Positions 7,586-23,064 of a stretch of DNA of 32,000 nucleotides are shown one piece after another. A program made the translations under genes and the position numbers. The notes under the pieces are model-generated. The model saw nothing but the letters and a program-made list of their open reading frames with translations. It ran no database searches and was not told the origin of the DNA. Each line of letters starts with the position of its first letter. The stretch's first letter is position 1. Origin of the DNA: Geotalea uraniireducens Rf4 (GTDB taxonomy: Bacteria; Desulfobacterota; Desulfuromonadia; Geobacterales; Geobacteraceae); assembly GCF_000016745.1 (NCBI RefSeq), contig NC_009483.1:1410001-1442000 (forward strand), given 5' to 3'.

Positions 7586-7590
7586 TAACC

Positions 7591-7794
7591 CACCACGGAG
7601 GCACAGAGGCACGGAGAAAAACAAAAGTTACTCCTTCAAACCCTTCACCGCAAAGGACCCAAAGGACCCATAGGGCCTAAAGGACCTAAATCGCGAAGGA
7701 CGCAAAGAAAACCTTTGCTTGATTCTACTTTGCGCACTTTGCGACTTTGCGGTTCAAAGATTTTGATTTCTCGTGTCTCTGTGTCTCCGTGGTG
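7591..7794. repeat. Nested palindromic intergenic element, CGCAAAG family, copy 1
   Basis: Outer arms: CACCACGGAGGCACAGAGGCACGGAGAAA with TTTCTCGTGTCTCTGTGTCTCCGTGGTG. Inner arms: ACCGCAAAGG followed by 7-9 nt units (GACCCAAAG, GGCCTAAAG, GACGCAAAG), pairing with CTTTGCGCACTTTGCGACTTTGCGGTTCAAAGATT. It fills the nifEN-nifX spacer. Confidence 0.85.
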
Positions 7795-7808
7795 AAAAGG
7801 AGCTTACT

Positions 7809-8195
7809 ATGAAAATTGCATTTACGACGAAGTCCGGTGAGATAATCGATCAGCACTTCGGCATGTCGGACAGTTTCCATATCTGGGAAATCGGGCCGGA
7901 CGAGGCCCATTACCTGGAGACGGTCACGGTGGGGATTCACGGCGACGACGAAGAGGACAAGATCAGCGCCCGGGCGGATCTGCTCACGGAGTGTGCCATT
8001 GTCTATACCATGCAGATCGGCGGGCCTGCGGCTGCCAAGCTGGTGGCGCGGAAGATCCATCCCATGAAGACCAATACCGAGGTCCCGGTCGCGGAGATCG
8101 TCGGCAAGCTGCAGGAAGTGCTGAGAGGAACGCCGCCACCCTGGCTACGCAAGGCGATGAACAAGGACCAGGCAACGTCGTTTTTAGAGGATTGA
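7809..8195 (+). CDS. nifX: NifX (FeMo-cofactor precursor carrier), ~128 aa
   Basis: Trimmed from 7773 to the ATG at 7809, which is preceded by AAAAGGAG. MKIAFTTKSGEIIDQHFGMSDSFHIWEI... is the dinitrogenase FeMo-cofactor-binding (NifX/NifB-C) fold pattern. Lies directly after nifEN. Confidence 0.9.
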   Translation: MKIAFTTKSGEIIDQHFGMSDSFHIWEIGPDEAHYLETVTVGIHGDDEEDKISARADLLTECAIVYTMQIGGPAAAKLVARKIHPMKTNTEVPVAEIVGKLQEVLRGTPPPWLRKAMNKDQATSFLED

Positions 8196-8262
8196 TAACC
8201 CCTGCGGGCGACCCAAGGGTACGCCCCTACTAAATACACACCACAATCAGGAGGATAGGAAA

Positions 8263-8526
8263 ATGGCTTACATCACAGGATTGAGAAGAAACAAGACCGA
8301 ATACACCCCCGAGTTCATTAAGACTATCGATGCGGAAACCTGCATCGGCTGCGCCCGCTGCTTCAAGGTCTGCGCCCACGACGTGCTCACCTTCGAAGAG
8401 GTGGACGAGGATGATTCGGCAAAGATGTACATGAAGGTGTCCAACCCGGACAACTGCATCGGCTGTCAGGCCTGCGGCCGGACCTGTTCCAAGAAGTGCT
8501 TTGCTTTTGAGCCGGTAGTGCTTTAA
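8263..8526 (+). CDS. fdxB: nif-specific ferredoxin III type 2x[4Fe-4S] ferredoxin, 87 aa
   Basis: YTPEFIKTIDAETCIGCARCFKVCAHDVL, an acidic insert, then NCIGCQACGRTCSKKC. This spacing and context (after nifX) are typical of nif ferredoxin III. Confidence 0.85.
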   Translation: MAYITGLRRNKTEYTPEFIKTIDAETCIGCARCFKVCAHDVLTFEEVDEDDSAKMYMKVSNPDNCIGCQACGRTCSKKCFAFEPVVL

Positions 8527-8667
8527 AAGGCAGTAAGAAGTAAATCGTGAGTAGTGAGTAGTGAGTAGTGAGTAGTGAGTAGTGAGTAGTAAAACCCAAC
8601 TTTGACGGCTGATTCAGTATTCAACTGCTCACGACTCACTACTTACTATTTACTACTTACGGCTTTT
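8525..8667. repeat. Long asymmetric palindrome built from GTGAGTA heptamers; (GTGAGTA)x6 tandem array at 8547-8588
   Basis: Left arm: AAAAGGCAGTAAGAAGTAAATC followed by six perfect GTGAGTA units. Reverse complement of the right arm: AAAAGCC GTAAGTA GTAAATA GTAAGTA GTGAGTC GTGAGCA. It spans from the fdxB stop to the TAGGAGG RBS of the next gene. Confidence 0.85.
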
Positions 8668-8679
8668 AGGAGGTTCCCC

Positions 8680-9009
8680 ATGCTCATCGCTGTTGCATCA
8701 AAAGACGGCCGGGATATCAATCAGCATTTCGGTCATGCGGAACGGTTTCTCATCTATGACGTGACAGGGAATGATGCGAAGCTGGTGGACGAAAAGAAGG
8801 TGGAACGCTACTGTTCCTACGACCAGGACCACCCGTTGCGCGCCCATCTGCTTACGGCCATCACCGATGCGCTGAAGAACTGTCGAGCCGTGGTCTGCGC
8901 CCAGATCGGCCAGGGACCGCAAATGGAGATGGAGCGTCTCGGGCTTGATACCTTCGTTGCGGACGGGCCGATCAAGCCGACACTGGTGGAATTGGCCAAA
9001 TTACTGTAG
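8680..9009 (+). CDS. Second NifX/NifB-C-terminal-family (dinitrogenase FeMo-cofactor-binding) protein, ~109 aa
   Basis: Trimmed from 8602 to the ATG at 8680 (RBS TAGGAGG). MLIAVASKDGRDINQHFGHAERFLIYDV... has the same fold signature as nifX. Confidence 0.85.
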   Translation: MLIAVASKDGRDINQHFGHAERFLIYDVTGNDAKLVDEKKVERYCSYDQDHPLRAHLLTAITDALKNCRAVVCAQIGQGPQMEMERLGLDTFVADGPIKPTLVELAKLL

Positions 9010-9052
9010 GGGCGAACGGCGTTCGCCCAGGGCGCATGCCATGCACCCCTAC
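9006..9052. repeat. GC-rich compound hairpin bridging the NifX-like stop and the draT RBS
   Basis: The outer stem GTAGGGG...CCCCTAC encloses two hairpins: GGCGAAC-GGC-GTTCGCC and GGGCGCAT-GCC-ATGCACCC. It starts at the TAG stop (9007-9009) and ends 12 nt before GAGG. Confidence 0.6.
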
Positions 9053-9079
9053 CGTTCACACAATGAGGTGATGACCCAC

Positions 9080-9877
9080 ATGCAGAATACTTCCTTCAAC
9101 CACTGCAACCTTCCCCCGTGGGTTATAGCATCGCGTCATTTCAACGACAATCCGCACAACCTGGAGATCCAGGGTGTGCGGGGCGCCAACCGCTTCCTGT
9201 TCGACAAGCTCGATACCATCTCCTCTGCCGAAGAACGTGCCCACATTTTCAACGACTACATGTCGGTGAAGTTCCAGCTCCACCAGTGGGAAAACCAGTC
9301 GACCGCCACGGCGCGCAAAAGCATCAAAAACAGCTACCTCCGTTTCCTCCGCGGTTGGATGATGGATTCCAATTCCATCGAAGGGGCGGTCCTGAAAGGG
9401 TGGGTGGAGAGCCGGATGGGGCTGCCGCCGACCTTCCACAAGCTCCGCATCCCCGGTATCCATTCCGAGGCGTACATGGTGTTTGCCATGGACCGGACCA
9501 AGGGGAGCGCGCGGACCAACGCCATCAATTCCCAACTCGATCTCCTCTATGAATACTGCCAGTACGAGCTGGCACAAAGGCATCCGAATGAGCGCTGGCT
9601 CACACTCTATCGGGGGACCTTCGATGCCAGCGAACATGACGTCCTGGAAACAATCAGCAAGCGGGAACAGATCGTGCGGCTCAACAACCTCTCCTCCTTT
9701 ACCTCCGTTGAGGAGCGGGCCTGGGAGTTCGGCTTCACGGTCTGGGAGGTGCGTGTTCCCCTGACCAAGCTGTTTTTTTATAACGACCTGCTTCCCAACA
9801 GCATCATGAAAGGGGAGGGGGAGTATATGGTCATCGGCGGGGAGTACCACGTCAGGGTGGTGCCCTGTACGCTTTGA
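9080..9877 (+). CDS. draT: NAD+:dinitrogenase-reductase ADP-ribosyltransferase (DraT), ~265 aa
   Basis: Trimmed from 8945; alternative starts at 9041 and 9071. Recognised DraT blocks: NHCNLPPWV, GAVLKGWVESRMGLPPTFH, QLDLLYEYCQYEL, LTLYRG, RLNNLSSFT, GEGEYMVIGG. Last gene of the nifEN string. Confidence 0.85.
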   Translation: MQNTSFNHCNLPPWVIASRHFNDNPHNLEIQGVRGANRFLFDKLDTISSAEERAHIFNDYMSVKFQLHQWENQSTATARKSIKNSYLRFLRGWMMDSNSIEGAVLKGWVESRMGLPPTFHKLRIPGIHSEAYMVFAMDRTKGSARTNAINSQLDLLYEYCQYELAQRHPNERWLTLYRGTFDASEHDVLETISKREQIVRLNNLSSFTSVEERAWEFGFTVWEVRVPLTKLFFYNDLLPNSIMKGEGEYMVIGGEYHVRVVPCTL

Positions 9878-10101
9878 TGAAGAAGTCGCCCTGTTAAGTT
9901 GCCGGGAGAAATCGCGTTGTCGTTAAGTTATTCGACATCCGATGTAAATTATAGTTTGCCCCCCTGAATGGCTGTCAATGACGGTAATCATTCGTTATGA
10001 GCGCCTTCCCTGCCCCTCGGTCCCCCCTCTGAAGTGTCGGATATGTTTACATGCCGTTGGAGAATCATATATTTGTCTAGCGATATCAGCCGGTTATATC
10101 C

Positions 10102-10117
10102 TGGCATGCTGGATGCA
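10102..10117 (+). promoter_or_regulatory. Sigma-54-type promoter upstream of the PEP-CTERM gene
   Basis: TGGCATGCTGGATGCA has GG and GC at canonical spacing. Located 89 nt upstream of the ATG at 10206. Confidence 0.55.
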
Positions 10118-10205
10118 TTTGTGTTCGTTAACGATCGTGTGTCGGCTGTGAAGCTGATACGAATTCAGTTAACGGGTAAATCCGCAGGTGAAGGAGGTAA
10201 AAACA

Positions 10206-10793
10206 ATGAAAAAATCGACTCTGATAGTGGCAATGCTTATGGGCCTGCTGATGATGGGCGTTGGGACCGGTCATGCAATAATGGTCGAGTTTACCCCTGA
10301 AATCAGCAACACCTTTGCGGGGAGTTCCTTCGATATCGACCTCGCCGCAAATATCCAGCCGGGTCAGGCCTTGGCCGGTTGGGGGCTCGACCTTGTTTAT
10401 GATGAAAGATTGCTGGCCCTCAATTTTGCCAACCTTGGGCCGCGTTGGTTGCAACCGTCCGACACGAACGGAGCTGTTTCTTCATCTTCCGGTCCGATTG
10501 TGAGCGGTATTTCCGAAGAGGTCTTATTGTCCTCAGCCAATTTTATCGGTTCGTATGGCAATGGGTCACATATCGACCTCTCGGGGGCGGTTGCATCGAT
10601 GCCTGGAAATGATTTTTTCGATGGTCTTTTCGATGGTCTTTTCGATGATTTTTTCGATAATGACCACGGTCCAGGGAACAACGACGGCGGCGGGCACGAT
10701 AACAATGCACCGGTTCCTGAGCCTGCATCGTTTCTGCTGGTTGGAGCCGGGTTGTTGGGTTTTGCTTTGTTGAGACGCAAACTGAATAAATAA
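10206..10793 (+). CDS. Secreted PEP-CTERM sorting-domain protein, ~195 aa
   Basis: Start taken at the ATG at 10206 (RBS GAAGGAGG). Signal peptide MKKSTLIVAMLMGLLMMGVGTGHA. C-terminal VPEPASFLLVGAGLLGFALLRRK shows PEP motif, TM helix and basic tail. The mid region resembles a cohesin-like beta domain (low confidence). An acidic DFFD/GLFD repeat precedes the anchor. Confidence 0.85.
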   Translation: MKKSTLIVAMLMGLLMMGVGTGHAIMVEFTPEISNTFAGSSFDIDLAANIQPGQALAGWGLDLVYDERLLALNFANLGPRWLQPSDTNGAVSSSSGPIVSGISEEVLLSSANFIGSYGNGSHIDLSGAVASMPGNDFFDGLFDGLFDDFFDNDHGPGNNDGGGHDNNAPVPEPASFLLVGAGLLGFALLRRKLNK

Positions 10794-10833
10794 GATTACA
10801 AGCAAAACTTACAACAAAACAAAAAAAGATGAT

Positions 10834-10872
10834 AAGGCCGTTCAGCGAATGCTGGACGGCCTTATTCATTTT
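10834..10872 (+). terminator. Intrinsic terminator after the PEP-CTERM gene
   Basis: AAGGCCGTTCAGC-GAAT-GCTGGACGGCCTT forms a 13-bp stem with one G-U pair, followed by ATTCATTTT. Confidence 0.7.
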
Positions 10873-11036
10873 GCGACATAAGAAGATCGGGTGAGCATGT
10901 TCACATCGTAAATGAAAAATTGCAGGGATACCTTTCTTGACAAGTACATGAATTCCTGCTTTATTTGTATAAAATATTAGTCTGTTTTAATAAATAAGGG
11001 GCTGCCCCTTATCCTGCTCTGTTCGTGGAGGTTACC

Positions 11037-12575
11037 GTGAAAACAACCAAGCTCAGTACATTAACCCTGGTCATCATGACGTTAGTCATCCTTGTAGTCG
11101 CTGGTTGCAGCGGTAGCGGCGGAAGTGGCAGCGGTGGAACATTGTCCCCGGGTGATAACACGACAAGTTCCGCATTTCTTCTCTATCAGGGGAGTATCGG
11201 CGCAGTGGATCCGGCAAATCCGGCAAGCCCGGTCAGTGTGGAGAGTGGTATAACCAACAAGGTAACGTCTATATTTCACGGCACCTACGATCCGGTCGCG
11301 AGGAAGGTGTCCGATATCCAAACCCGTACGGTTGTCTATGTAAAAGGAGGGCAATTGTTCAAGGTTAGTGCCTTGAAGGGAGCAGCTACACCGATTCCTG
11401 TCCAGCTTACCAATGAAACTTCTGCCGATACCATAGTCGGTACGCCGTCAGCCATCGCAGATTTTGCCGACCACAATAACGCGCAATTCATATACTTGAC
11501 AGCTGGCGGTGCCTGGAAGATGATCAAGGTCGGGATGAGTGCCACTGATACCCCCATACCGGCAAAGCAGCCACTTAAGCATGTTTATGATAAATCAAAC
11601 GGGGCGCTTGCCGGATGGCTCGCCATAGACGGCAGTGCGGTGAAAAGGTTTGATGCGAACTTTAGCGCCGGCAGTGCTGCAACGGTCGCGACTTTTGCCG
11701 ACAAGGCGGAAGCCGTGGGTTTCACCATTGATATCATTTTCCTCAAGATAGATGGCAATCTCTATGCCTATAACACGGCAAACGGAGCCATTTCCAGCGT
11801 GCTGTACACATTCACTGCCACTACTGCCGGTGATTTGAAGGCAACCAGGGATGGCATCAACATGTATTTTGTCGACGGTGGAAAACTGCTGAGCGTTTCC
11901 CTGAGCGGAACTGCACTAGCAGAGCAGATCGGCGCAGAAACCGGCACCATCGTTCAGTTGGCATATACCGACCACAAAGTGGTTTACGTGTTGAATGATG
12001 CCGGGCAGTACAAGATAAGAACGACGGGTAAAAACGGAGTGGTTTCCGGTACGCCTCCTGTTGACCTGGCAACCGCTGCGAACGGCGAAATTTTGATTTT
12101 TATCGGCGCAAAAGGAACCCTTGCCTATTTTGATAGAGTATCCGGAAACGGCGTCACAACGGCAGGAACTATTCGTGAGGACGGAAGCGGCCGGAACGAA
12201 ACGCCCAATGCCTTTTGGGTGGGTGGCTCCTTCCTGAACATATTCGATACGATGTCCGAGGTGATTCCCCAGTATTTCATCAGGGCTGCAGGCATTACGT
12301 CGATTGTGGATTTCAGAGGCGGCCAGTTGGAATCTTTTGACGCCGCGACCGGCAACCGGCTGGCCGTGTTGGGAACCGTTCCCCAGGATATCCATATGGC
12401 AGGAGTTTTTGCCGGTGTCTGCGGCAGCAAGATTCTTCTGGAGGGGAGAACCATAACCAGCTTGGATACGTTTGTCAGTGACGTGTTCTATGCGGATTTG
12501 ACGAAGGGCGGTTCGTTGACGCGGGTTACCAGCACTCCGCTCGTCAGTGAGCATGTCGTTCCGCTGTTCAATTAA
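11037..12575 (+). CDS. Lipoprotein of unknown function with about seven beta-propeller-like repeats, ~512 aa
   Basis: GTG at 11037 lies 5 nt after GGAGG; the track start at 11025 is also GTG. Lipobox LVVAGC is followed by a Gly/Ser linker. Recurrent blade-like motif: VVYVKGGQLFKVS, FIYLTAGGAWKMIKVG, FLKIDGNLYAYNTANG, MYFVDGGKLLSVSLSG, VVYVLNDAGQYKIRTTG, LIFIGAKGTLAYFDRVSG. Confidence 0.8.
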   Translation: MKTTKLSTLTLVIMTLVILVVAGCSGSGGSGSGGTLSPGDNTTSSAFLLYQGSIGAVDPANPASPVSVESGITNKVTSIFHGTYDPVARKVSDIQTRTVVYVKGGQLFKVSALKGAATPIPVQLTNETSADTIVGTPSAIADFADHNNAQFIYLTAGGAWKMIKVGMSATDTPIPAKQPLKHVYDKSNGALAGWLAIDGSAVKRFDANFSAGSAATVATFADKAEAVGFTIDIIFLKIDGNLYAYNTANGAISSVLYTFTATTAGDLKATRDGINMYFVDGGKLLSVSLSGTALAEQIGAETGTIVQLAYTDHKVVYVLNDAGQYKIRTTGKNGVVSGTPPVDLATAANGEILIFIGAKGTLAYFDRVSGNGVTTAGTIREDGSGRNETPNAFWVGGSFLNIFDTMSEVIPQYFIRAAGITSIVDFRGGQLESFDAATGNRLAVLGTVPQDIHMAGVFAGVCGSKILLEGRTITSLDTFVSDVFYADLTKGGSLTRVTSTPLVSEHVVPLFN

Positions 12576-12615
12576 ACCCAGCATTGTCCGGTTAGGTCCT
12601 TGCAATCTGCATTTT

Positions 12616-12706
12616 CCCCCCTCTCCCTAACCCTCTCCTTTAGGCCCGCAATTTGGGTCCACCAGGGGAGAGGGATTACAAGCGCCCCTCCCTTCGATGG
12701 GAGGGG
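12616..12706. repeat. GC-rich CCCTCTCC/GGAGAGGG and CCCCTCCC/GGGAGGGG hairpin pair between convergent genes
   Basis: CCCTCTCC (12631-12638) pairs with GGGGAGAGGG (12665-12674). CCCCTCCC-TTCGAT-GGGAGGGG spans 12685-12706. This region overlaps the 3' end of the draG ORF. Confidence 0.65.
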
Positions 12707-13739
12707 TTGGGGGAGGGTGCCACCGATCTTCCGAAAAACAGGCTGAATGGATCAAGTTCCCCTTCCCCAGCGGCGACAGCGCCACAAGCCCGGCCGCCAG
12801 CGTTGAAACCTCGTTCATGACGTTTTTGTTCATCTTCTTTATCCATTTTCTGGGAATGTTTTCCCGTCCGTAATAGGCCCCCGCGAGCATACCCATGATG
12901 GCGCCGGTGGTATCGGCGTCGCCACCCTGGTTGACCGTACTGACCAGGCACTCCTCGAAATTCCTCCCCCTGAAGAAGTGATGAAAAACCGTTTGCATGG
13001 TGTCCACCACGTAGCCGGTGGCGAGACCTTTGTAAGAATCGAAGCGGAAGTTCGGGTGCTCCGCAACGAGGCTGTCCACCTCCCTGCGCAGGCGAGGCTT
13101 GGAGAATCCGCAGACGGAAAGGTGAATGAGGCGGCCGAGGCAGATGCAGGCAGCGTCGGAGAGCGGGTGATTGTGGGTAATGTGGGCCTGGGCTACCGCA
13201 TGGCGCTGGAGAAGCTCGTCGTCACCCATTGTGCAGAGGGCTGTCGGCAGAAGTCGCATGACTGCGCCGTTACCCGCGTCCCACTGATTGAACGGGGTTT
13301 CCAGCGTCCCCTTCAGCATGTAGTTCCTGATGCCGCGCCGGCAGGTATCCCCCACATCGATCGGCTTCGATTTGAGCCATGAGGCGAAATTTTCCGCAAT
13401 CCCCCGCAGCGACATTTCCCCGGCGGAAACGATGGCCCTGGCGACGCAGAGGGACATCTCGGTGTCATCGGTCACGTTGCCCGCCTTGATCCGCAGCCAG
13501 CCCCCACCGACGATCTCGTCCAGCGTGCCGTACTTTGTCTTGATCTCACCAGCGGTCATGAACTCTACCGGCGCGCCGAGGGCATCGCCGACTGCAAGGC
13601 CGATGAAAGCGGCCTCGGCACGGGAAATTATTTCATTTATGTCGAAGGGTGCATGCACGATCGGACTATCCTCTGCCGGTAAGGGATGCAATAAGCAATC
13701 CTCATTCGTTAGAGGCCGGTAATACCGGCTTGAAGGCAA
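12627..13739 (-). CDS. draG: ADP-ribosyl-[dinitrogenase reductase] glycohydrolase (DraG, ADP-ribosylglycohydrolase family), 370 aa as read
   Basis: ARH-family motifs: FIGLAVGDALGAPVEF, GNVTDDTEMSLCVARAI, GNGAVMRLLP, GGDADTTGAIMGMLAGAYYG. nif context and a draT gene nearby. The terminal ~35 codons are encoded by the GC-rich repeat and are probably not ancestral. Confidence 0.85.
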   Translation of the reverse strand: MPSSRYYRPLTNEDCLLHPLPAEDSPIVHAPFDINEIISRAEAAFIGLAVGDALGAPVEFMTAGEIKTKYGTLDEIVGGGWLRIKAGNVTDDTEMSLCVARAIVSAGEMSLRGIAENFASWLKSKPIDVGDTCRRGIRNYMLKGTLETPFNQWDAGNGAVMRLLPTALCTMGDDELLQRHAVAQAHITHNHPLSDAACICLGRLIHLSVCGFSKPRLRREVDSLVAEHPNFRFDSYKGLATGYVVDTMQTVFHHFFRGRNFEECLVSTVNQGGDADTTGAIMGMLAGAYYGRENIPRKWIKKMNKNVMNEVSTLAAGLVALSPLGKGNLIHSACFSEDRWHPPPTPPIEGRGACNPSPLVDPNCGPKGEG

Positions 13740-13766
13740 AAGGTCGCTTTTCCTTTCCTTCGGTGT

Positions 13767-13802
13767 TGCCTAAATATTAATCATTTTCCGCTAAATTAGG
13801 CA
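13767..13802. promoter_or_regulatory. Inverted repeat TGCCTAA-N22-TTAGGCA, candidate activator site upstream of nifB
   Basis: 7-bp perfect arms at 13767-13773 and 13796-13802, located 75-110 nt upstream of the -24 element. The half-site is shared with the nifEN palindrome. Confidence 0.3.
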
Positions 13803-13876
13803 TGGCAGAGGAGCCCGTTCTGAAGAATAACCGCGGAACTTGGCTATATATAAGGGTATTTGTGCTAATGAAATTC

Positions 13877-13892
13877 TGGCACGCTTAATGCC
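13877..13892 (+). promoter_or_regulatory. Sigma-54 (-24/-12) promoter of nifB
   Basis: TGGCACGCTTAATGCC has GG and GC at canonical spacing. Located about 172 nt upstream of the nifB ATG. Confidence 0.7.
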
Positions 13893-13940
13893 ATAAGTAG
13901 TAGCAACGGATACGATGGCGTATCCCGGAAAAGGCAACGG

Positions 13941-13977
13941 AGCCCGGCGGAAGATGTTTTCTGTCGGGCTTTTTTTA
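13941..13977 (+). terminator. Intrinsic terminator inside the nifB 5' leader (attenuator)
   Basis: AGCCCGGC (13941-13948) pairs with GTCGGGCT (13963-13970), including one G-U pair, followed by TTTTTTATT. Confidence 0.65.
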
Positions 13978-14063
13978 TTCGGCAAGGGCGCTGACAGTAA
14001 GGGTCAGCGTCTTTTTCTTTATGCCGGCAACCCAAAAGTATCCCGGCCGAAAGGAGAGCTATT

Positions 14064-14930
14064 ATGGCAACAGCGTGCAACGAGCGGAAGAACATTCAGG
14101 GTCACCCCTGCTTCGGCGGCAATCATCACAAAAACGGCCGCATGCATCTGGCCGTGGCGCCGCGATGCAACATCAAATGCGGCTACTGTTCCAGGAGGCA
14201 TGACTGCGCCAACGAGTCGCGCCCCGGTGTGACGAGCAGGCTCCTGACCCCGCAGGAGGCGATTGTCAAGGTCCGGGAGGTGGTGGCGAGCGATATCCTC
14301 GGCCCGATCATCAAGGTGATCGGTATCGCCGGTCCCGGCGATCCGCTGGCCAACGAGGAGACCTTCGAGACCTTCCGGCTCATCGGCGCGGAGTTTCCCC
14401 ACCTCATCAAGTGCATGAGCACCAACGGCCTCCTCCTGCCGGAGAAGATCGATCTCTTGCAGGAACTTGACCTGCACAGCCTGACTGTGACCATCAACGC
14501 CCTCGACCCGAGGGTAGGGGCGAAAATCTATAGCCATATCCTCTACCATGGCAAAAAACTGACCGGCACGGAGGCTGCTGAAATACTGATAGCCAACCAG
14601 TTGGAAGGATTAAGGCGAGCGGCTGCATACGGCATGACCATTAAAGTGAATACGGTCTACATACCCGGTGTCAACGAGGACCAGATACCGCTCATCGGCA
14701 GGAAGGTCAAGGAGCTTGGAGCGTTCGTCATGAACGTCATGCCGATCATACCCCAGGCCGACTTTGCCGGGATAGTTCCGCCCACGCCGGCGCTGATCGA
14801 TGAAGTGCGCAGTGCCAACGAGCAGATCATAGGCCAGTTCAAGCATTGCCGCCAGTGCCGCGCCGATGCCGTCGGCCTGATCGGCCAGGACGTGGCGGTC
14901 GTTGAAACGGCATGCGTGGTGAACAGGTAG
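14064..14930 (+). CDS. nifB: NifB, stand-alone radical-SAM form (no C-terminal NifX-like domain), 288 aa
   Basis: HPCFGGNHHKNGRMHLAVAPRCNIKCGYCSRRHDC carries the CxxxCxxC radical SAM cluster. GIAGPGDPLAN and the C-terminal CRQCRADAVG are also present. RBS AAAGGAGAG. Confidence 0.93.
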   Translation: MATACNERKNIQGHPCFGGNHHKNGRMHLAVAPRCNIKCGYCSRRHDCANESRPGVTSRLLTPQEAIVKVREVVASDILGPIIKVIGIAGPGDPLANEETFETFRLIGAEFPHLIKCMSTNGLLLPEKIDLLQELDLHSLTVTINALDPRVGAKIYSHILYHGKKLTGTEAAEILIANQLEGLRRAAAYGMTIKVNTVYIPGVNEDQIPLIGRKVKELGAFVMNVMPIIPQADFAGIVPPTPALIDEVRSANEQIIGQFKHCRQCRADAVGLIGQDVAVVETACVVNR

Positions 14931-15091
14931 GAGTCTGTCGGACTTAGGGAATCGTAGCGAGAGGATGGAAAATCGAGGACAGATTTCCGGAAATTTGAGA
15001 GCGAATAGTGGACCTATTCGTCGAAAATTTACGGAGATATGGACCGATTTGCCATTCTCGCAGTCGATTCATTCCTAAGTCCGGCAGGCTC
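14931..15091. repeat. About 160-nt multi-tier imperfect palindrome filling the nifB-GNAT spacer
   Basis: Tier 1: GAGTCTGTCGGACTTAGGGAATCG with CGATTCATTCCTAAGTCCGGCAGGCTC. Tier 2: GCGAGAGGATGGAAAATCG with CGATTTGCCATTCTCGC. Tier 3: GAGCGAATAG-TGGAC-CTATTCGTC at the centre. It begins on the first base after the TAG stop. Confidence 0.75.
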
Positions 15092-15120
15092 CTACGCCTT
15101 CCCCCTACGGTGCTAGATCG

Positions 15121-15930
15121 ATGAAAACCGACAGATTCCGACATGAAGATATCGACTCTTTTCTCCACCTGGCGGCAGATGAGGGGTGGTTGTGCGACCG
15201 CTGGGAGTTCGGTTTTCTCCTTGGCGCCTTTCCCGATGGCTGTTTCGTGGTGCGCGGGGCTGATGGGCCGCTCGCATTTGTCACGGCCGTAAGCTACGGG
15301 ACCAGTGGCTGGATCGGCAACCTTATCGTCCGCAGCGACCAGCGTGGCCTCGGGGTCGGCAAGGGGCTGATGAAACAGGCGATTGCCGCGTTGCAGGATG
15401 TCGGAACGGAAACCGTCTGGCTGACCGCATCGCAGGCTGGCAGGCCGATTTACGAAAAACTCGGCTTCACCGCCGTTGACGAGGTTAAGCGCTGGGCAGG
15501 CTACGGCAGTGGAGACCTGGTCCCGGAAGAGGGGACGATCTGCTTTGAGAAAATGGTGGAAACGGACCGAGCAGGGTGGGGCGATGAACGGAAGGCCCTG
15601 CTGCTTGCCGTCTCTAAGCGGGGGACGGCGTACGAAAGCCGGGATGGATTTATCGTCAGGCAGCGGTGCGGCAACGTTACCCAATTGGGCCCATGGGGGT
15701 GCAGCAGCATTGACGATGCCGCCGCTCTTCTGGATAGAGCCATCATTGGGGTCGGCGCGGGTAATCCTGTTGTACTGGATGTGCCGGCCGGAAATGTTGC
15801 TGCTGCCGGGCTGCTCGACAGTCGGGGTTTCACTGTCCGGGGTGGGACGGTCCTGATGTCCCTGGGGAGGCCTGCCGCCTATCGTCCCGATAATGTATAC
15901 GCCCTTGCCAGCATGGGGAGTATCGGGTAA
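15121..15930 (+). CDS. GNAT-family N-acetyltransferase with C-terminal YitH-like domain, 269 aa
   Basis: Acetyl-CoA binding segment IGNLIVRSDQRGLGVGKGLMKQAI...YEKLGF, plus a second alpha/beta domain. Confidence 0.85.
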   Translation: MKTDRFRHEDIDSFLHLAADEGWLCDRWEFGFLLGAFPDGCFVVRGADGPLAFVTAVSYGTSGWIGNLIVRSDQRGLGVGKGLMKQAIAALQDVGTETVWLTASQAGRPIYEKLGFTAVDEVKRWAGYGSGDLVPEEGTICFEKMVETDRAGWGDERKALLLAVSKRGTAYESRDGFIVRQRCGNVTQLGPWGCSSIDDAAALLDRAIIGVGAGNPVVLDVPAGNVAAAGLLDSRGFTVRGGTVLMSLGRPAAYRPDNVYALASMGSIG

Positions 15931-16045
15931 TAGATGAAGCGCCGTTTGTAGTTTAATGGTTGCTGGTTCATGATAATAGGATAAGCTTAAATGCATCGTG
16001 TGATACACCAGTTGCGGATGGTGATTTTTAGTCATATTGAAAAAT

Positions 16046-16068
16046 ATTTGCTTAAATTATAAGCAAAT
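16046..16068. promoter_or_regulatory. Perfect 9-bp-arm palindrome upstream of the etf operon (candidate operator)
   Basis: ATTTGCTTA-AATTA-TAAGCAAAT lies about 210 nt upstream of etfB. It is followed by a possible TTGCTA-N17-AAATAT promoter. Confidence 0.35.
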
Positions 16069-16275
16069 GTGGGCTTGTGTGTGGTGGGTATTTTTGCTAC
16101 AATCCGCCCGTGCTTAAAATATAGACGTTGTTGTGTGGATTATCCCGTAGCTGTTTTTTCGTCCTTATCGTTCCGCTTAAATGATGCGGAATAGATCTGC
16201 GTCAAAGATTCCTGCGCTGGAAAAGTATACGTTCTCTGTAGTTCTGAATCATATCCATCTCCTGTGAGGTCTTAC

Positions 16276-17088
16276 ATGCTCGTAGTAGCCTGCATCAAAC
16301 AGGTCCCGGACACCACCCAGGTGCAGATAGATCCGGTGACCAACACCCTGGTGCGCGAAGGAATCCCGTTCATCGTCAACCCGTACGACACCCACGCCCT
16401 GGAAGAGAGCCTGCGTCTCAAAGACCGGTTCGGTTTCCGGGTCGCCGCCATGTCCATGGGCCCCCCCAATGCCGAGGCAACGCTTAAAAAAGCCCTCGCA
16501 CTGGGAGTCGACGAAGCAATCCTCCTCTCCGACCGGGTCTTCGGCGGCGCCGACACCCTGGCCACCAGCAACGTCCTCTCCGCAGCCATCAGAAAGCTCA
16601 ACGCGGAGGAAGAAGTCGGGATAGTCTTCTGCGGCAAACAGACCATCGACGGCGACACCGCCCAGGTCGGCCCCGGCATCGCCACGCGGCTGGGATACAC
16701 CCAGCTCACCCTTGTCGACCGGATCGAGGATCTTGATCCTGTCAAGCGCACCATAAAAGTCCGGCGCAAGCTCGAAGGGCGGCACGAAATAGTCGAAGCC
16801 CCCTTGCCCGTCATGATCACCGTCGTCCGGGAGCTGAACCGACCCCGCTACCCGACCGTCCCCATGCGGCTTGAGTCCCAGGACGCCGAGGTAAAAGTCT
16901 GGAACAACGATGCCCTCAAGCTCGACGTCAACACCTGCGGCCTCAAAGGCTCCCCCACCTGGGTAAGCCGGATCTTCTCCCCCGAACGGGAAAAAGGCGA
17001 GATCATCGGCGACGGTGTCCACGAGCCGGAAAAAACCGCAGAACTTTTGATCGACAAGCTGTTGAGTAAAGACCTGCTAGCACTGTAA
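16276..17088 (+). CDS. etfB: Electron transfer flavoprotein beta subunit (bifurcating-type signature), ~270 aa
   Basis: Trimmed from GTG 16264 to the ATG at 16276 (GAGGT 5 nt upstream). MLVVACIKQVPDTT..., and GKQTIDGDTAQVGPGIA, the segment seen in FAD-binding beta subunits of Fix/Bcd-type Etfs rather than the DDDxNQTGQ form of housekeeping Etfs. Confidence 0.93.
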   Translation: MLVVACIKQVPDTTQVQIDPVTNTLVREGIPFIVNPYDTHALEESLRLKDRFGFRVAAMSMGPPNAEATLKKALALGVDEAILLSDRVFGGADTLATSNVLSAAIRKLNAEEEVGIVFCGKQTIDGDTAQVGPGIATRLGYTQLTLVDRIEDLDPVKRTIKVRRKLEGRHEIVEAPLPVMITVVRELNRPRYPTVPMRLESQDAEVKVWNNDALKLDVNTCGLKGSPTWVSRIFSPEREKGEIIGDGVHEPEKTAELLIDKLLSKDLLAL

Positions 17089-17100
17089 AAAAAACAGAAC

Positions 17101-17247
17101 AATCTTTGAACCGCAAAGGACCCAAAGGGCCTAAAGCGCAAAGGTCGCAAAGAAAACCCACAAGTGAGCGTCAAATTTAGGGGTAAAACAATAAGAAGTT
17201 TTTGCTTTCCTTAGCGTTCTTTGCGTCTTTGCGGTAAAAAAAGATTT
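17101..17247. repeat. Nested palindromic intergenic element, CGCAAAG family, copy 2
   Basis: Left arm: AATCTTTGAACCGCAAAGGACCCAAAGGGCCTAAAGCGCAAAGGTCGCAAAG. Right arm: CGTTCTTTGCGTCTTTGCGGTAAAAAAAGATT. It shares GAACCGCAAAGGACCCAAAGG with copy 1. Confidence 0.8.
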
Positions 17248-17263
17248 TTGAAGGGAACCGTCC

Positions 17264-18589
17264 ATGACCGACGAAGCGAAAAAACCGCTGAAGAAACCCC
17301 GGGGCAAAGCCTGCCTCATCGCAGGCAAATGCATCGCCTGCGGCGCCCGCTGCCAGAGTGCCTGCCCCGTTGACGCCATCGAAATGAACGACGCCGGCGA
17401 GCCGATCATCAACGAGAGCAAATGCATCGGCTGTGTCAAATGCGTCAAAGTCTGCCCGGCCCAGGCCATCGAGATGTTCTTCACCCCCGAAGAACAGAAA
17501 ATCCTCGACGAGATCATGAAACAGGGCGCCCCCGCCGTCGAAGAAGTGGACGCCGAAGCAGCAGCCCTCGCCAAAAAGCTCGCCGCCTACCGGGGCGTCT
17601 GGGTCTTTGTAGAGCAGACCGAAGGCGAAGCAGCCAAAGTCTCCTGGGAACTCCTGGGCGAAGGAGCCAAACTGGCCCGTGCCCTGGACGTCCCTCTCTC
17701 CGCCATCGTCATCGGCGAAAAGGTCGAACACCTCTGCAAGGAAGCCTTCGCCTACGGCGCCAGTAAAGCCTATCTCATCGACGCCCCCGTCTTCAAATAC
17801 TACCGGACCGAAGCCTACTTAAGAGCAGTCAACAACCTCATCGAAAAATACAAGCCCGAGATCATCCTCATGGGCGCCACCGGCCTCGGCCGCGACCTGG
17901 CCGGCGCCGTCGCCACCGTCGTCGGCACCGGCCTCACCGCCGACTGCACCGGCCTCGCTATCGACGACAAACGGAACCTGATGCAGACCCGACCCGCCTT
18001 CGGCGGCAACATCATGGCCACCATCATGTGCGACAAGTTCCGGCCGCAGATGTCCACCGTCCGCCCCCACGTCATGGCCATGCCCGAACATGACCCGCAA
18101 GGCTCAGGCGAGATCATCCGCGAAAGCTGCCCGGTCAAAGAAGAAGAGATCCTCGTCAAAGTCCTCGATATCATCAGCGACAAGAAGACAGACCAGGTCG
18201 ACGTAGCCGGCGCCGAATTCATCGTCTCCGGCGGCCGGGGCATGATGGGAAAAGAAAACTTCGCCATGCTCCAGGAACTGGCCAACGAACTCGGCGGCGT
18301 GGTGGGCGCTTCGCGCTCTGCCGTAGACGCAGGCTGGATGCCCCAGGAAAGACAGGTAGGGCAGACCGGCAAGACCGTTCGCCCCAAGATCTACATAGCC
18401 TGCGGAATCTCCGGCGCCATCCAGCACCTGGTCGGCATGCAGGACTCCGACGTCATCATCGCCATCAACCGGGACAAGGAAGCACCCATCTTCGAAGTCG
18501 CCACCTACGGCATCGTCGGCGACCTGTTCCAGATTATACCGGCCATCACCCGGAAACTCAGGGAACTGAAACAAGCAAAAAGCAGATAA
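17264..18589 (+). CDS. etfA: Electron transfer flavoprotein alpha subunit with N-terminal 2x[4Fe-4S] ferredoxin domain, 441 aa
   Basis: [13 protein letters not shown] and [12 protein letters not shown] clusters in the first ~70 aa. The EtfA body follows, including the C-terminal FAD-binding region (VSGGRGM..., [16 protein letters not shown]). Confidence 0.93.
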
Positions 18590-18595
18590 CACAAT

Positions 18596-18800
18596 CCACC
18601 ACAAAGACACGGAGATTCGGAGAAAGCCTTGAAAAATAAAACCATGTAACCGCAAAGGCGCAAAGGGCGCTAAGAAAGAAGTAAAACCGAAAACTTTATT
18701 GGTTATAAAAACATTTAAAGCGGATAAGCCTTTCGATTTTACCTTTGCGTTCTTTGCGCCTTTGCGGTTCAAGGATTTGTCTTTCTCCGTGTCTCTGTGG
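18596..18800. repeat. Nested palindromic intergenic element, CGCAAAG family, copy 3
   Basis: Outer arms: CCACCACAAAGACACGGAGATTCGGAGAAAG with CTTTCTCCGTGTCTCTGTGG. Inner arms: AACCGCAAAGGCGCAAAGGGCGCTAAGAAAG with CCTTTGCGTTCTTTGCGCCTTTGCGGTTCAAGGATT. Confidence 0.85.
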
Positions 18801-18817
18801 AAATAGAGGTTTTAACA

Positions 18818-20803
18818 ATGACCGACCAAGCCATCTTTACCCCGTTACTGATCGCCGCCCTGATCTTCTTTGCCTGGAGCTGCTACAAGCGCTTCAGCCT
18901 GCTGGGGCTCGGCCAGGCCGAAGACCGCTTCCAGCGCATCGACCTGCGCATCTGGGACATGCTCCTCTACGCCTTCGGCCAGAAGCGGGTCATGGCAAAA
19001 CCATTCGGCATCAACCACTGCATCATCTTCTGGTCATTCCTGATCCTGCTCATCGCCAACGGCGAATTCATCCTCGCCGGCGTCCTTCCCGGAGTAAGCC
19101 TGCGGCTCCTTTCCGACGGCATCAGCGGCCCCCTCGTCCTCCTCTGCGACCTGGCCTCCCTGCTGGCCCTGATCGGAGTCATCATCGCCGTCAGCCGGCG
19201 GCTCCTTTTCAAACCCGACTACCTGGACACAGCCTACGTCAAAGGGAGAAGCTTCGAAGGCTTCCTCATCCTCGGCTTCATCGCCCTCCTCATGCTTGCC
19301 TACTTCGGCCTGCACGGAGCCGAAATAGCCATGGGAGAAGAACCGCTCGCCGGCTACATGCCGCTCTCCGCCTTCACCGCCAAATTGCTCCTCGCCTCAC
19401 CTTTGGCCTCGAGCCTCGCACCTTTCGCCTCGTTTGCCTGGTGGCTCCATGCGCTGGTGCTCCTGGCCTTCATCTGCTTCCTCCCCTTGAGCAAACACAT
19501 GCATATCCTCACCGCCATCCCCAACTGCTTCCTCCAGAGCCTGGACAAGCCCAACACCCAGCCCCGGGAAGAATTCAAAAAAGGAGAACAGTTCGGCGTC
19601 GCAGAAGTAAGCCAGTTCACCTGGAAAGACCTGTTCGACGGCTTCTCCTGCACCGAATGCGGTCGCTGCCAGAACGCCTGTCCCGCAACAGCCACCGGCA
19701 AACCCCTCAACCCGCGCCAGGTGATCCACGCCATCAAGACCAACCTCCTCGCCAACGGCCCGTACCTGCAAAGGGGAGAAAAACCGGTCATACCGCTCAT
19801 CGGCGAAGAATCGGAAGGAAGCAACACGGAAGACACCATCTGGTCCTGCACCACCTGCGGCGCCTGCATTGCCGCCTGCCCGGTCATGATCGAGCAGATG
19901 CCGAAGATCATCAAGATGCGCCGGCACCTGGTAGAAATGGAGAGCAAATTCCCCGAAGAACTCCTGAACCTCTTCGAAAACATGGAACAAAGAAGCAACC
20001 CCTGGGGGATCGCACCAAGCGAGCGGACCAAGTGGAGCTCCACCATGGAAGTCAAACCCTTCGAGCAAGGCAAAACCGAATACCTCTTCTACATCGGCTG
20101 CGCCGGCGCCTTCGACTCCCGGGCCAAGCACGTAACAGTAGCACTCGCCACCATCCTCAACGCCGCAAACATCTCCTGGGGAATCCTCGGCAAAGAAGAG
20201 AAATGCTGCGGCGACAGCCTGAGAAGGCTCGGCAACGAATATGTCTTCGACAAGATGGCAAAAGAAAACGTCCAGCTCTTCAAGGAAAAGGGGATCACCA
20301 AGGTCATCACCCAGTGCCCCCACTGTTTCACCACCCTGAAAAACGACTACAAACAGTACGGCATCGAGCTCCAGGTCATCCACCACGCCGAACTGATCGA
20401 CCAGCTCCTCAAAGAAGGCAAGCTGAAGCTGAACAAACAGGTAAAAGAACTCGGCAACATCGTCTTCCACGACTCCTGCTACCTGGGGAGACACAACGAC
20501 ATCTACGAAGCCCCGCGAAGCGTCATCGAAACTGCAACCGGGAACGCCCCGACAGAACTGGAGCGAAAGAAAGACAACTCCTTCTGCTGCGGCGCAGGTG
20601 GCGGGCGGATGTGGATGGAAGAATTCATCGGTGAGCGGATCAACCTGAACCGGGTTACGGAAGCGCTCACAAAAAATCCAGACACCATCTGCGTTACCTG
20701 CCCCTACTGCATGACCATGTTCGAGGACGGCCTCAAGGACAAGCAGGCAGGACAGACGAAGGTAAGGGACATCGCGGAGCTGGTGGCGGAAGGGCTGAGG
20801 TGA
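18818..20803 (+). CDS. Membrane-bound Fe-S oxidoreductase: N-terminal multi-TM (cytochrome b/NarI-like) domain, 2x[4Fe-4S] and two CCG (HdrD/GlpC-like) domains, ~661 aa
   Basis: Start taken at the ATG at 18818 (GAGG 8 nt upstream; the track start at 18797 is GTG). About five hydrophobic helices in the first 240 aa. CTECGRCQNACP and CTTCGACIAACP clusters. CCG motifs EKCCGDS and SFCCGAGGG. The architecture matches Etf:quinone-type oxidoreductases of anaerobes. Confidence 0.9.
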   Translation: MTDQAIFTPLLIAALIFFAWSCYKRFSLLGLGQAEDRFQRIDLRIWDMLLYAFGQKRVMAKPFGINHCIIFWSFLILLIANGEFILAGVLPGVSLRLLSDGISGPLVLLCDLASLLALIGVIIAVSRRLLFKPDYLDTAYVKGRSFEGFLILGFIALLMLAYFGLHGAEIAMGEEPLAGYMPLSAFTAKLLLASPLASSLAPFASFAWWLHALVLLAFICFLPLSKHMHILTAIPNCFLQSLDKPNTQPREEFKKGEQFGVAEVSQFTWKDLFDGFSCTECGRCQNACPATATGKPLNPRQVIHAIKTNLLANGPYLQRGEKPVIPLIGEESEGSNTEDTIWSCTTCGACIAACPVMIEQMPKIIKMRRHLVEMESKFPEELLNLFENMEQRSNPWGIAPSERTKWSSTMEVKPFEQGKTEYLFYIGCAGAFDSRAKHVTVALATILNAANISWGILGKEEKCCGDSLRRLGNEYVFDKMAKENVQLFKEKGITKVITQCPHCFTTLKNDYKQYGIELQVIHHAELIDQLLKEGKLKLNKQVKELGNIVFHDSCYLGRHNDIYEAPRSVIETATGNAPTELERKKDNSFCCGAGGGRMWMEEFIGERINLNRVTEALTKNPDTICVTCPYCMTMFEDGLKDKQAGQTKVRDIAELVAEGLR

Positions 20804-20876
20804 GTTCTACGTTCTAAGTTCTAGGTTCTATGTTGAAAAACACCAACGTAGAACATAGAACGTAGAACTTAGAACC
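20804..20876. repeat. Palindrome made of GTTCTAN heptamers
   Basis: Left arm: GTTCTAC GTTCTAA GTTCTAG GTTCTAT GTT. Loop: GAAAAACACC. Right arm: AAC GTAGAAC ATAGAAC GTAGAAC TTAGAAC C. It starts on the base after the TGA stop and ends 17 nt before the next ATG. Confidence 0.85.
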
Positions 20877-20893
20877 TGAAAAAAGGTTATACC

Positions 20894-21720: not shown

Positions 21721-22002
21721 ATGATCAATTCCTTTAGGTGCAAAGAAACTGAAAAGTTATTCAACGGCAAATTTTCCTCCAAGTTGCCACAGGCAATACA
21801 GCGCCTTGCCGCTCGAAAACTTGACTATCTGGATGGTGCCGGGGATCTTGATGACTTGCGTTCCCCTCCCGGAAACCGTCTGGAAACTTTAAAGGATGAT
21901 CGCGCCGGACAACACAGCATTCGCATTAATGACCAGTGGCGCATCTGTTTTGTATGGCGTGACAATAACGCCTTCGATGTCGAAATCGTTGACTACCATT
22001 AA
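21721..22002 (+). CDS. higB: HigB-type (RelE/ParE superfamily, killer protein) toxin, ~93 aa
   Basis: Trimmed from 21685. MINSFRCKETEKLFNGKFSSKLPQAIQRLAARKLDYL...GNRLETLKGDRAGQHSIRINDQWRICFVW is the characteristic HigB pattern. The toxin gene lies upstream of the antitoxin gene. Confidence 0.88.
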   Translation: MINSFRCKETEKLFNGKFSSKLPQAIQRLAARKLDYLDGAGDLDDLRSPPGNRLETLKDDRAGQHSIRINDQWRICFVWRDNNAFDVEIVDYH

Positions 22003-22012
22003 GGAGTATTTT

Positions 22013-23032: not shown

Positions 23033-23064
23033 TGACCCTTGTGCCCTTTGACCCTTGTGCCCTT
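23033..23064. repeat. Tandem duplication 2 x 16 nt (TGACCCTTGTGCCCTT)
   Basis: Two perfect adjacent copies at 23033-23048 and 23049-23064, 66 nt upstream of the lipoprotein gene. Confidence 0.85.

Follow-up and report, generated by a model that had tools for sequence, protein, structure and literature searches.

Several spacers between the nif and etf cistrons of Geotalea uraniireducens Rf4 are filled by long palindromes that run from the stop codon of one gene to the Shine-Dalgarno (SD) sequence of the next. They were analysed in a stretch of 32,000 nucleotides (contig NC_009483.1, positions 1,410,001 to 1,442,000 of the forward strand), here called the window, in whose coordinates all positions are given. 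The hairpins are most likely palindromic repeats, akin to repetitive extragenic palindromes (REPs) and miniature transposable elements with inverted repeats (MITEs), which purifying selection confines to the gap between stop codon and SD sequence in compact operons. Three kinds can be told apart: palindromes with arms of tandem units, a single non-repetitive palindrome (about 165-185 nt, GTAG/CTAC ends), and short REP-like hairpins of the GTAGGGGCG type.

The elements of the window are listed below by spacer, each named after the genes on its two sides. Here fdx is the gene for nif-specific ferredoxin III, nifX2 a second NifX-like gene, and the nifB-like gene a short radical-SAM gene.

7591-7794, nifEN/nifX: composite palindrome (inverted repeat I11, 23-nt arms, 91% complementary); outer arms CACCACGGAG-GCACAGAG-GCACG at 7591-7616 with their complement at 7769-7794; inner arms of CGCAAAG/CAAAGGACC-type units at about 7647-7715 and of CTTTGCG units at 7720-7760; tandem arrays at 7594-7616, 7651-7690, 7727-7751 and 7769-7787.
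8199-8230, nifX/fdx: short GC-rich REP-like remnant CCCCTGCGGGCGACCCAAGGGTACGCCCCTAC, with no stop-to-SD hairpin.
8526-8667, fdx/nifX2: palindrome (inverted repeats I1-I6, 44-nt arms, 84% complementary); left array of GTGAGTA x 6.3 at 8547-8590, right array of TACTCAC/TACTTAC units at 8628-8660.
9006-9052, nifX2/draT: REP-like hairpin GTAGGGGCG...CACCCCTAC (GTAGGGG...CCCCTAC), whose GTAG head includes the nifX2 stop codon TAG.
14918-15104, nifB-like/GNAT: non-repetitive, nearly perfect palindrome of about 165-185 nt with its core at 14931-15091 (inverted repeat I7).
17095-17250, etfB/etfA: palindrome (inverted repeats I19 and I20); tandem arrays at 17112-17152 and 17218-17233.
18599-18800, etfA/oxidoreductase: composite palindrome (inverted repeats I5, I14 and I15) whose centre pairs too; outer arms of the CACRGAG type at 18599-18626 and 18781-18800; inner arms CGCAAAGG at 18639-18674 and 18743-18778; tandem arrays at 18651-18666 and 18742-18766.
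20801-20875, oxidoreductase/GATase: palindrome of GTTCTAN x 4.6 and NTAGAAC x 4.4 (inverted repeats I8 and I9, 92-96% complementary) with the stop codon in the stem; tandem arrays at 20803-20834 and 20845-20875.
23836-23911, DUF3108/AraC: palindrome with GTTGCT-type arms (inverted repeat I10, 27-nt arms, 85% complementary), an eighth tandem-unit palindrome, outside the nif/etf set.

Each spacer was folded and its minimum free energy (MFE) compared with that of dinucleotide-preserving shuffles, the difference being given as z. Inverted repeats were scanned for separately, and arrays were called with Tandem Repeats Finder. An earlier reading of the window from its sequence only had listed seven hairpins and proposed that every intercistronic spacer of the nif and etf operons is zipped in this way. 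This holds for five of the seven, which fold far more stably than their shuffles (z -8 to -12): nifEN/nifX (MFE -94.5, z -8.2 to -9.9), fdx/nifX2 (MFE -67.2, z -8.1 to -8.7), nifB-like/GNAT (MFE -92.3, z -8.3 to -8.6), etfA/oxidoreductase (MFE -96.8, z -10.8 to -12.4) and oxidoreductase/GATase (MFE -38.1, z -8.1 to -9.1). The other two, etfB/etfA (MFE -46.9, z only -2.4 to -2.5) and nifX2/draT (z only -1.6 to -1.8 for the whole spacer), are weak. Two further spacers, nifX/fdx (67 nt, z -1.8 to -1.9) and GNAT/etfB (345 nt, z -1.6, AT-rich and promoter-like), contain no long palindrome at all. The inverted-repeat scan finds long arms in all seven listed spacers, and the remaining intergenic regions of the window reach z values of -4.5 or weaker.

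The same reading had placed the hairpins correctly to within a few bases, judged by the outermost pairs of the MFE folds or by the inverted-repeat arms. The geometry that it described, in which the stem bridges the stop codon and the next SD sequence, is also confirmed. Counted from the end of the stop codon, the first paired base of the stem falls at -14 to +9 nt, and the last lies 0-11 nt before the SD sequence; in the MFE folds the outermost pair lies 13-22 nt ahead of the start codon, and in three or four spacers the stop codon itself is inside the stem. In the nifEN/nifX spacer, for instance, the stop codon ends at 7585, the outermost pair is 7591-7794, and the SD sequence AGGAG lies at 7798-7802. 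The fdx/nifX2 stem (8526-8667) is followed by GGAGG at 8669-8673, and the outermost pair of the etfA/oxidoreductase spacer (18599-18800) by GAGG at 18806-18809.

On the plus strand, none of the seven hairpins is followed by a terminator-like site, in agreement with the earlier statement that none has a U tract after it. The hairpins therefore lack the form of intrinsic (Rho-independent) terminators, in which a GC-rich stem precedes a U tract, and the count of terminator-like sites over the region, 26, is at the level of shuffled sequence (21.7 +/- 4.5). Sigma-70 promoters in the spacers likewise occur at shuffle level. A scan with Rfam 15 gives no match at the gathering thresholds; at E <= 1 there are just four matches, far below threshold, to miRNA-precursor models (generic long hairpins). 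No open reading frame of at least 60 codons lies wholly inside any spacer on either strand.

Although the spacers had been taken to be mostly unrelated in sequence, a BLAST search of spacer against spacer shows that those beginning at 7586, 17089 and 18590 share CGCAAAG-type arms, and that the first and third of these also share CACRGAG outer arms. In all elements but the nifB-like/GNAT palindrome, the arms consist of tandem units of 7-9 nt, and the opposite arm consists of the complementary units. The unit types are CACRGAG, CGCAAAG, GTGAGTA and GTTCTAN. Units CACGGAGG and CACAGAGG form the outer arms of both 7591-7794 and 18599-18800, and CGCAAAGG-like units form the inner arms of these two elements as well as the arms of 17095-17250. 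The last of the three is a degenerate copy of the CGCAAAG type and resembles 7647-7713 and 18742-18768 in the BLAST comparison. Within the 32-kb window each unit family has two to three copies, and further copies occur in other Geobacteraceae, as expected of multicopy intergenic repeats. With terminal arms of 17-44 nt and sizes of 75-204 bp, the elements share the terminal inverted repeats, the small size (about 100-400 bp) and the non-coding nature of MITEs.

The nifB-like/GNAT palindrome differs from these in that Tandem Repeats Finder finds no arrays in it. Its GTAG/CTAC ends (14927/15095) carry the pairing across the stop codon of the nifB-like gene. The spacers nifX2/draT and nifX/fdx represent the third kind, with short GC-rich hairpins of the GTAGGGGCG...CCCCTAC type.

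The spacers were compared with those of other loci, which are referred to by labels. The 80 Geobacteraceae loci fetched around etfA are L001-L080, metagenome contigs are L081-L200, and contigs from IMG/VR are L206 onward. Closer relatives are ranked by the identity of their EtfA to that of the window: the uncultured relatives L201 and L202 (97%), L325 (93%), L203-L205 (92%), L323 (90%) and Geotalea daltonii FRC-32 (L324, 88%).

The consistent architecture that the sequence-only reading saw within the window is not conserved among the 80 Geobacteraceae loci, where orthologous spacers have a median length of about 60 nt and are mostly unstructured. For the orthologous nifB-like/GNAT spacer, measured in 13 species, the median is 3 nt. 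Strong structure (z <= -5) is found in 9 of 43 folded etfB/etfA spacers and 9 of 48 etfA/oxidoreductase spacers, and the orthologous hairpins use other units, namely TGCGGAA, GGTCAAG, GTGAAAG, GGTAAAG, CCAGGAG, GGCTGAA, GGGCTAG and ATGAATT. In L006, L011 and L324, the equivalent spacers contain one-armed direct arrays with no hairpin.

Filled and empty sites can be seen between close relatives, as they can for MITEs, at two junctions. At nifB-like/GNAT, the 190 nt of the window contrast with 15 nt in L201/L202 and with overlapping genes in L203. No copy of its palindrome was found in any fetched locus, and the palindrome appears to be a recent insertion. At the second junction, etfA/oxidoreductase, the window has 228 nt against the 24 nt of G. 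daltonii. L201/L202 share the CACRGAG outer arms with the window at this site and have a different interior; L203 and L323 have a CGCAAAG/CGCAACG palindrome only.

Other junctions show the turnover of elements at one site. At etfB/etfA, four unrelated unit types occur in four lineages whose EtfA proteins are 90-97% identical, and G. daltonii has one-armed arrays (z 0.1). At fdx/nifX2, the GTGAGTA element of the window recurs in L201 with different numbers of units and an insertion inside it, and L203 has a REP hairpin of the GTAGGGGCG type instead. In the nifEN/nifX spacer of L201, the right half is base-for-base identical to that of the window, and the centre consists of nested CCCTCCC/GGGAGGG palindromes. 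The GTTCTAN family occupies the oxidoreductase/GATase junction in L201/L202, L325 and L204, and its units are found at other sites in L064 and L006; uninterrupted junctions of this pair in relatives are 7-17 nt long. The REP-like remnant at 8199-8230 is identical in L201 and nearly so in L203. Palindromes of the GTAGGGGCG type recur in six other loci (L048, L017, L057, L007, L064 and L203).

In these comparisons, the hairpins behave as fast-evolving repeats that insert into or beside each other, unlike a conserved RNA, and the evidence weighs against a conserved function for them.

Two further observations concern the ends and arms of such elements. Often the repeat overlaps the upstream gene, whose stop codon TAG is at the same time part of a GTAG palindrome head (TAGGGGCG..., GTAGGAG...), as at 9004-9012 and 14926-14934 of the window and in L016, L003 and L203. 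The arms of some orthologous spacers are very unequal, with about 14 CTCGAAC against about 5 GAGGAAC units, or one-armed arrays of several unit types are concatenated (L203, 955-1147; L006, 9833-9990; L324, 9902-10000). Such unequal arms and concatenated arrays point to expansion in place by slippage.

The elements are not specific to operons. Genes were called over 1.3 Mb with a crude codon score that missed at least one gene of the window, so the following context frequencies are approximate. Long inverted repeats are found in 51 of 588 co-directional spacers of at least 30 nt, in 5 of 95 convergent and in 4 of 117 divergent regions, and in none of the shuffled controls.

One family reaches far beyond the Geobacteraceae. 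Among the Geobacteraceae loci, CACCACGGAG units are also present in L036, L042 and L074; like the GTTCTAN units of L064 and L006, they extend to other genera. The terminal motif CACCACGGAGRCACRGAG occurs in at least 120 metagenome contigs, with 38-71% GC, and in 117 IMG/VR contigs. Most metagenome copies are palindromes TTTCACCACGGAG...CTCCGTGGTGAAA of the form TTTCACCACGGAG(RCACRGAG)n ... (CTCYGTGY)nCTCCGTGGTGAAA, 54-450 nt long. Among the copies listed, about 24 are co-directional, 8 convergent and 6 divergent by a crude call of context, which is near the usual genomic proportions. The contigs that carry CACCACGGAG(RCACRGAG)n...CTCCGTGGTG palindromes range from 38 to 73% GC and include predicted viral contigs.

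These widespread palindromes often hold other unit palindromes nested inside them, and some contigs have three or more copies. In two unrelated metagenome contigs, a gene of the GxxExxY family (TIGR04256, 146.6 bits in L183) lies exactly in the loop of a CACGGAG-armed palindrome (L183, 2416-2869; L083, about 1046-1535), and in L083 the GxxExxY palindrome units stand back to back, like cassettes. No such genes were found in the Geobacteraceae and viral loci.

The proposed explanation is that small, non-coding, self-complementary interspersed repeats enter the spacers of compact operons, or expand within them, and turn over fast. Turnover would proceed by change of unit number, by nested insertion and by replacement with other families. 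When an element is removed from its spacer, 16-30 nt remain between stop and start codon, a length like that found in relatives where the junction is uninterrupted (15 nt, 24 nt and 7-17 nt). An insert in such a minimal junction is tolerated only between the stop codon and the SD sequence, and the bridging of the two is therefore expected even if the hairpin has no function. The palindromy would be intrinsic to the elements, and probably serves as a filter of tolerance too, as the cistrons stay near each other, and little of the untranslated RNA is unstructured, when the insert folds on itself. What is established about Rho and translational coupling suggests that a self-pairing insert is likely to be tolerated at places where 150-200 nt of unstructured RNA would be left exposed without translation and would hold the cistrons apart. 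The elements may have arisen by transposition through some enzyme, by slippage and inverted duplication in place, or by both. They would fold in vivo and be nearly neutral for operon expression.

The interpretation as REP/MITE-like repeats can be compared with known systems. REPs have a GTAG head, which the GTAG...CTAC heads of the nifX2/draT and nifB-like/GNAT elements recall. REPs and the bacterial interspersed mosaic elements (BIMEs) or REP doublet hairpins (REPINs) that they form, enterobacterial repetitive intergenic consensus (ERIC) sequences and Correia MITEs are all palindromes outside genes, and are transcribed along with genes, either at 3' ends or between cistrons. Unlike the window elements, they do not have arms of tandem 7-9-nt units as a feature. 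The window contains neither a gene for a REP-associated tyrosine transposase (RAYT) nor an insertion sequence (IS). In L204, a gene for a Y1_Tnp+DnaA_C fusion (4766-5915) directly follows the orthologous GATase gene; it scores 63 bits with REP_Tyr_transpos (NCBIfam cut-off 80) and is flanked by inverted repeats of its own, which are different (TTAGGGGACGCCCTTCATATATTTACATTTA).

A similar layout is found in the early region of phage T7, where intercistronic RNase III sites also consist of stop codon, long stem and next SD sequence between cistrons of one transcript, with no terminator function. For the T7 sites, which are conserved and specific, cleavage is established by experiment, whereas the window hairpins are not conserved and are predicted only. 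The short tandemly repeated repetitive (STRR) sequences of cyanobacteria are arrays of tandem heptanucleotides in the intergenic DNA of diazotrophs, like the window arrays, with which they are compared by description only. They occur in another phylum, have other units, and are not described as systematically palindromic.

The architecture of the window elements has been annotated in a sister species, Geobacter metallireducens. The stop-to-SD hairpins had been said to be explained by no annotated feature type, but this does not hold, as paired tandem hepta- and octanucleotide sites are already annotated in that genome (Gmet_I1xx-3xx, PMC2700814 Table S4). In their classes 1-3, the two sites of a pair lie on opposite strands at variable distance, and a site comprises 4-5 tandem hepta- or octanucleotides (Aklujkar et al. 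2009, PMC2700814). Pairs are located between nifD and nifK, after nifEN, beside an etfB gene and beside many copies of ISGme8 (IS110 family) (PMC2700814 Table S4). Aklujkar et al. read them as DNA sites for integration host factor (IHF) or HU, "predicted global regulator binding sites" (PMC2700814). Like these classes, the window elements are multicopy, intergenic, opposite-strand paired tandem arrays, with arrays in both arms in five of them; the nifB-like/GNAT palindrome lacks this feature. The consensuses of class 1 (GTTGCTYN) and class 3 (MTYCTGA) (PMC2700814) differ from CACRGAG, CGCAAAG, GTGAGTA and GTTCTAN, and only the element at 23836-23911 has class 1-like GTTGCT units. In G. bemidjiensis, multicopy sequences occur in 12% of intergenic regions, and in 31% of those several occur together (PMC2996986).

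An example of a MITE from the same strain is Chunjie (Chen et al. 2008), of which one copy lies at 2632106-2632324. As described in the secondary sources PMC3184786 and PMC10969869, it is an A+T-rich, non-coding element of 178-235 bp with terminal repeats of ~21 bp and direct repeats of 9 bp. According to these sources, its RNA folds at about -98 to -130 kcal/mol, and it is inserted in an operon that it does not disturb. The two composite palindromes of the window match Chunjie, compared by description only, in size (202-204 bp), A+T-richness (40-47% GC), length of the terminal inverted repeats (about 21 bp) and fold (MFE -94.5 and -96.8). They differ in the direct repeats, which do not flank the window elements.

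Several observations weigh against the interpretation of the hairpins as mobile, near-neutral repeats. No target-site duplication of 7-10 bp flanks any window element; the best flanking repeats, 7-8 nt long with 50-86% identity, are at chance level. No transposase is tied to the elements, so that mobility in the strict sense is an inference. The one-armed arrays of L006, L011 and L324, together with the changes in unit number, point to growth by slippage in place for at least part of the family. In addition, long palindromes are about three-fold enriched in the etf spacers (9 of 45, or 20%, of etfB/etfA and 10 of 50, or 20%, of etfA/oxidoreductase, against 26 of 434, or 6%, of other co-directional spacers), which could reflect an insertion hot spot or selection. 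The etf spacers also stay occupied by differing families in close relatives. This persistence fits either a hot spot, where elements attract elements, or selection for a hairpin.

A further point of this sort is the polarity of the arms. A palindrome reads alike on both strands, and the order of its arms is therefore an intrinsic property. Among the intergenic tandem-unit palindromes of the Geobacteraceae loci, the purine-rich arm comes first in 28 and second in 2, while in non-tandem palindromes the two orders are equally frequent (14:14). Over all fetched loci, with CACRGAG units excluded, the counts are 144 purine-first against 31, or 38 against 8 by unit cluster. The 5' arm units are 64% purine, with 35% G and 20% C. 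SD-like tetramers occur in 53 of 148 of them, against 38 +/- 4.5 in within-unit shuffles, in a sample dominated by CACGGAG variants. Exceptions to the polarity include the GTTCTAN and GTTGCT-type elements of the window. The purine-first order suggests a directional constraint, which a purely neutral model does not predict. Only a directional process could tell the two arm orders apart; candidates are transcription with Rho, translation, 5'-dependent RNases, replication, and strand-specific recognition by a single-strand transposase.

One model that would account for the polarity regards the tandem-unit palindromes as a selected, operon-safe spacer design, in which a hairpin is kept at particular junctions while its sequence is replaced, with the purine-rich, SD-like, C-poor arm first and the pyrimidine-rich arm second. 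This model is doubtful. Under it, the first arm could block the loading of Rho on the untranslated insert until the hairpin is zipped. Alternately, it could hold terminating ribosomes, which the hairpin would then hand to the next SD sequence, or the hairpin could offer a site for RNase III.

The gene calls of the sequence-only reading are borne out by Pfam and NCBIfam, and the genes and upstream signals are as follows.

4695-4710: sigma-54-type promoter TGGCACGGCAAATGCT upstream of nifEN.
4749-4795: leader hairpin and T run upstream of nifEN.
4826-7585: nifEN.
7809-8195: nifX.
8263-8526: fdx.
8680-9009: nifX2.
9080-9877: draT.
13877-13893: sigma-54-type promoter TGGCACGCTTAATGC upstream of the nifB-like gene.
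13931-13975: leader terminator hairpin and T run upstream of the nifB-like gene.
14064-14930: nifB-like gene.
15121-15930: GNAT gene.
16264-17088: etfB.
17264-18589: etfA, fused to a ferredoxin.
18818-20803: CCG/Fe-S oxidoreductase gene.
20894-21583: GATase gene.

In G. sulfurreducens, the nifEN-nifX operon and a radical-SAM/acetyltransferase operon have antitermination leaders for GnfR (Ueki and Lovley, PMC2995071). The leaders of nifEN and of the nifB-like gene in the window match these GnfR (ANTAR) leaders. The sigma-54 promoters and GnfR-type leaders mark the starts of operons, and the spacers with hairpins therefore lie inside transcription units. In both promoter-leader regions (4695-4795 and 13877-14014), the leader hairpin contains a GGCAANGG(C/A)GCC-like motif.

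Some other features of the window may be mentioned here. In the regions 23826-23935 and 24961-25007, the 14-mer AGGGGAGGCTAGAG stands ahead of two different repeat blocks: in one, the GTTGCT-type palindrome (23836-23911), after which comes a direct repeat AACGTCCCCCTTTTGGTCC x 2 at about 23895-23935, and in the other, a GGGCGAGG-like array (24973-25007). Upstream of the DUF3108 gene is a one-armed tandem array, TGACCCTTG x 3.9, with no inverted partner (23033-23064). A gene for a PEP-CTERM protein contains a 12-nt tandem repeat x 3.7 (10615-10658) and is followed by a perfect, terminator-like hairpin (10832-10865). Directly downstream of the GATase gene, a gene for a HigB-like toxin (PF05015, 64.9 bits) and an HTH_3 antitoxin-like gene (21721-22318) form a pair that is also present in L201/L202.

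Alternative explanations concern the effect of the hairpins and not their origin, and are thus not strictly exclusive of the repeat-element interpretation. It is possible, if unlikely, that the elements have been co-opted as mRNA elements. They would then act as processing sites for RNase III or RNase E, or as protective stem-loops at 3' ends, and divide the nif and etf mRNAs into segments of differing stability, by analogy with REP/BIME, ERIC and Correia elements and the phage T7 early RNase III sites. Stems of at least 20 bp, about two helical turns of double-stranded RNA as in RNase III sites, are predicted in five spacers; they lack U tracts, and the promoters and leaders place them in transcribed RNA. 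The enrichment of palindromes in the etf spacers, and the fact that a site remains occupied after its palindrome is replaced by an unrelated one, would fit as well. Cleavage by RNase III is described for Correia elements, and modulation of RNase E decay for ERIC elements (PMC10969869, PMC3184786). Many relatives, however, have the same operons with no hairpins, and Rfam offers nothing beyond the sub-threshold miRNA-precursor models. Nor is the sense strand favoured: the sense RNA is more stable than the antisense in 20 of 31 structured spacers, a set picked on its sense fold (4 of 7 in the window alone), and the 31 spacers have 114 against 111 G-U pairs. Covariation, which the sequence-only reading had suggested as a check for conserved structure with diverged sequence, is slight. 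Compensatory changes affect 2 of 16 pairs at oxidoreductase/GATase and 1 of 36 between L203 and L323, which is too few to decide, and they could also come from homogenisation of the DNA from arm to arm. With no sense bias and few compensatory changes, these sequences therefore provide no positive evidence for selection on the structure of the sense RNA.

Long-range translational coupling, as proposed by the sequence-only reading, is very unlikely. In this model, the fold would set the stop codon beside the SD sequence, and terminating ribosomes would reinitiate across the base of the stem. The position of the stem base relative to both signals agrees with it, and SD-like purine motifs are abundant in the 5' arms. 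In four spacers, the SD sequence is partly masked (P(unpaired) 0.05-0.28), and a terminating ribosome could unmask it. Yet any insert in a minimal spacer would give the same geometry, relatives do with junctions of 15-24 nt or with overlapping genes, and the families are also found in convergent and divergent regions. The probability is equally small that the elements act as DNA, their tandem opposite-strand units being iterated sites for a nucleoid-associated or regulatory protein, or perhaps targets at which IS elements land. A feature of the DNA would agree with the tandem iteration of the units and with their strict strand symmetry, and in G. metallireducens ISGme8 (IS110 family) and ISGme9 adjoin many class 1 pairs (PMC2700814). 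At equivalent positions, however, at least a dozen unrelated unit sequences occur, so that no single protein could recognise them all. A search of the whole window for the IHF consensus WATCAANNNNTTR gives no match, and most copies lie inside operons, not in promoter regions.

The interpretation of the hairpins as interspersed repeats has consequences for annotation. Striking as they are, the intercistronic hairpins of the nif and etf operons would be repeats that differ between near-identical strains, and they should not be read as conserved regulatory RNAs. The natural filled and empty alleles of one junction (190 and 15 nt, or 228 and 24 nt) are suited to tests of polarity, mRNA processing and translational coupling. 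Finally, the purine-first polarity and the wide spread of the CACCACGGAG family point to an undescribed mechanism of propagation or to a selective filter.

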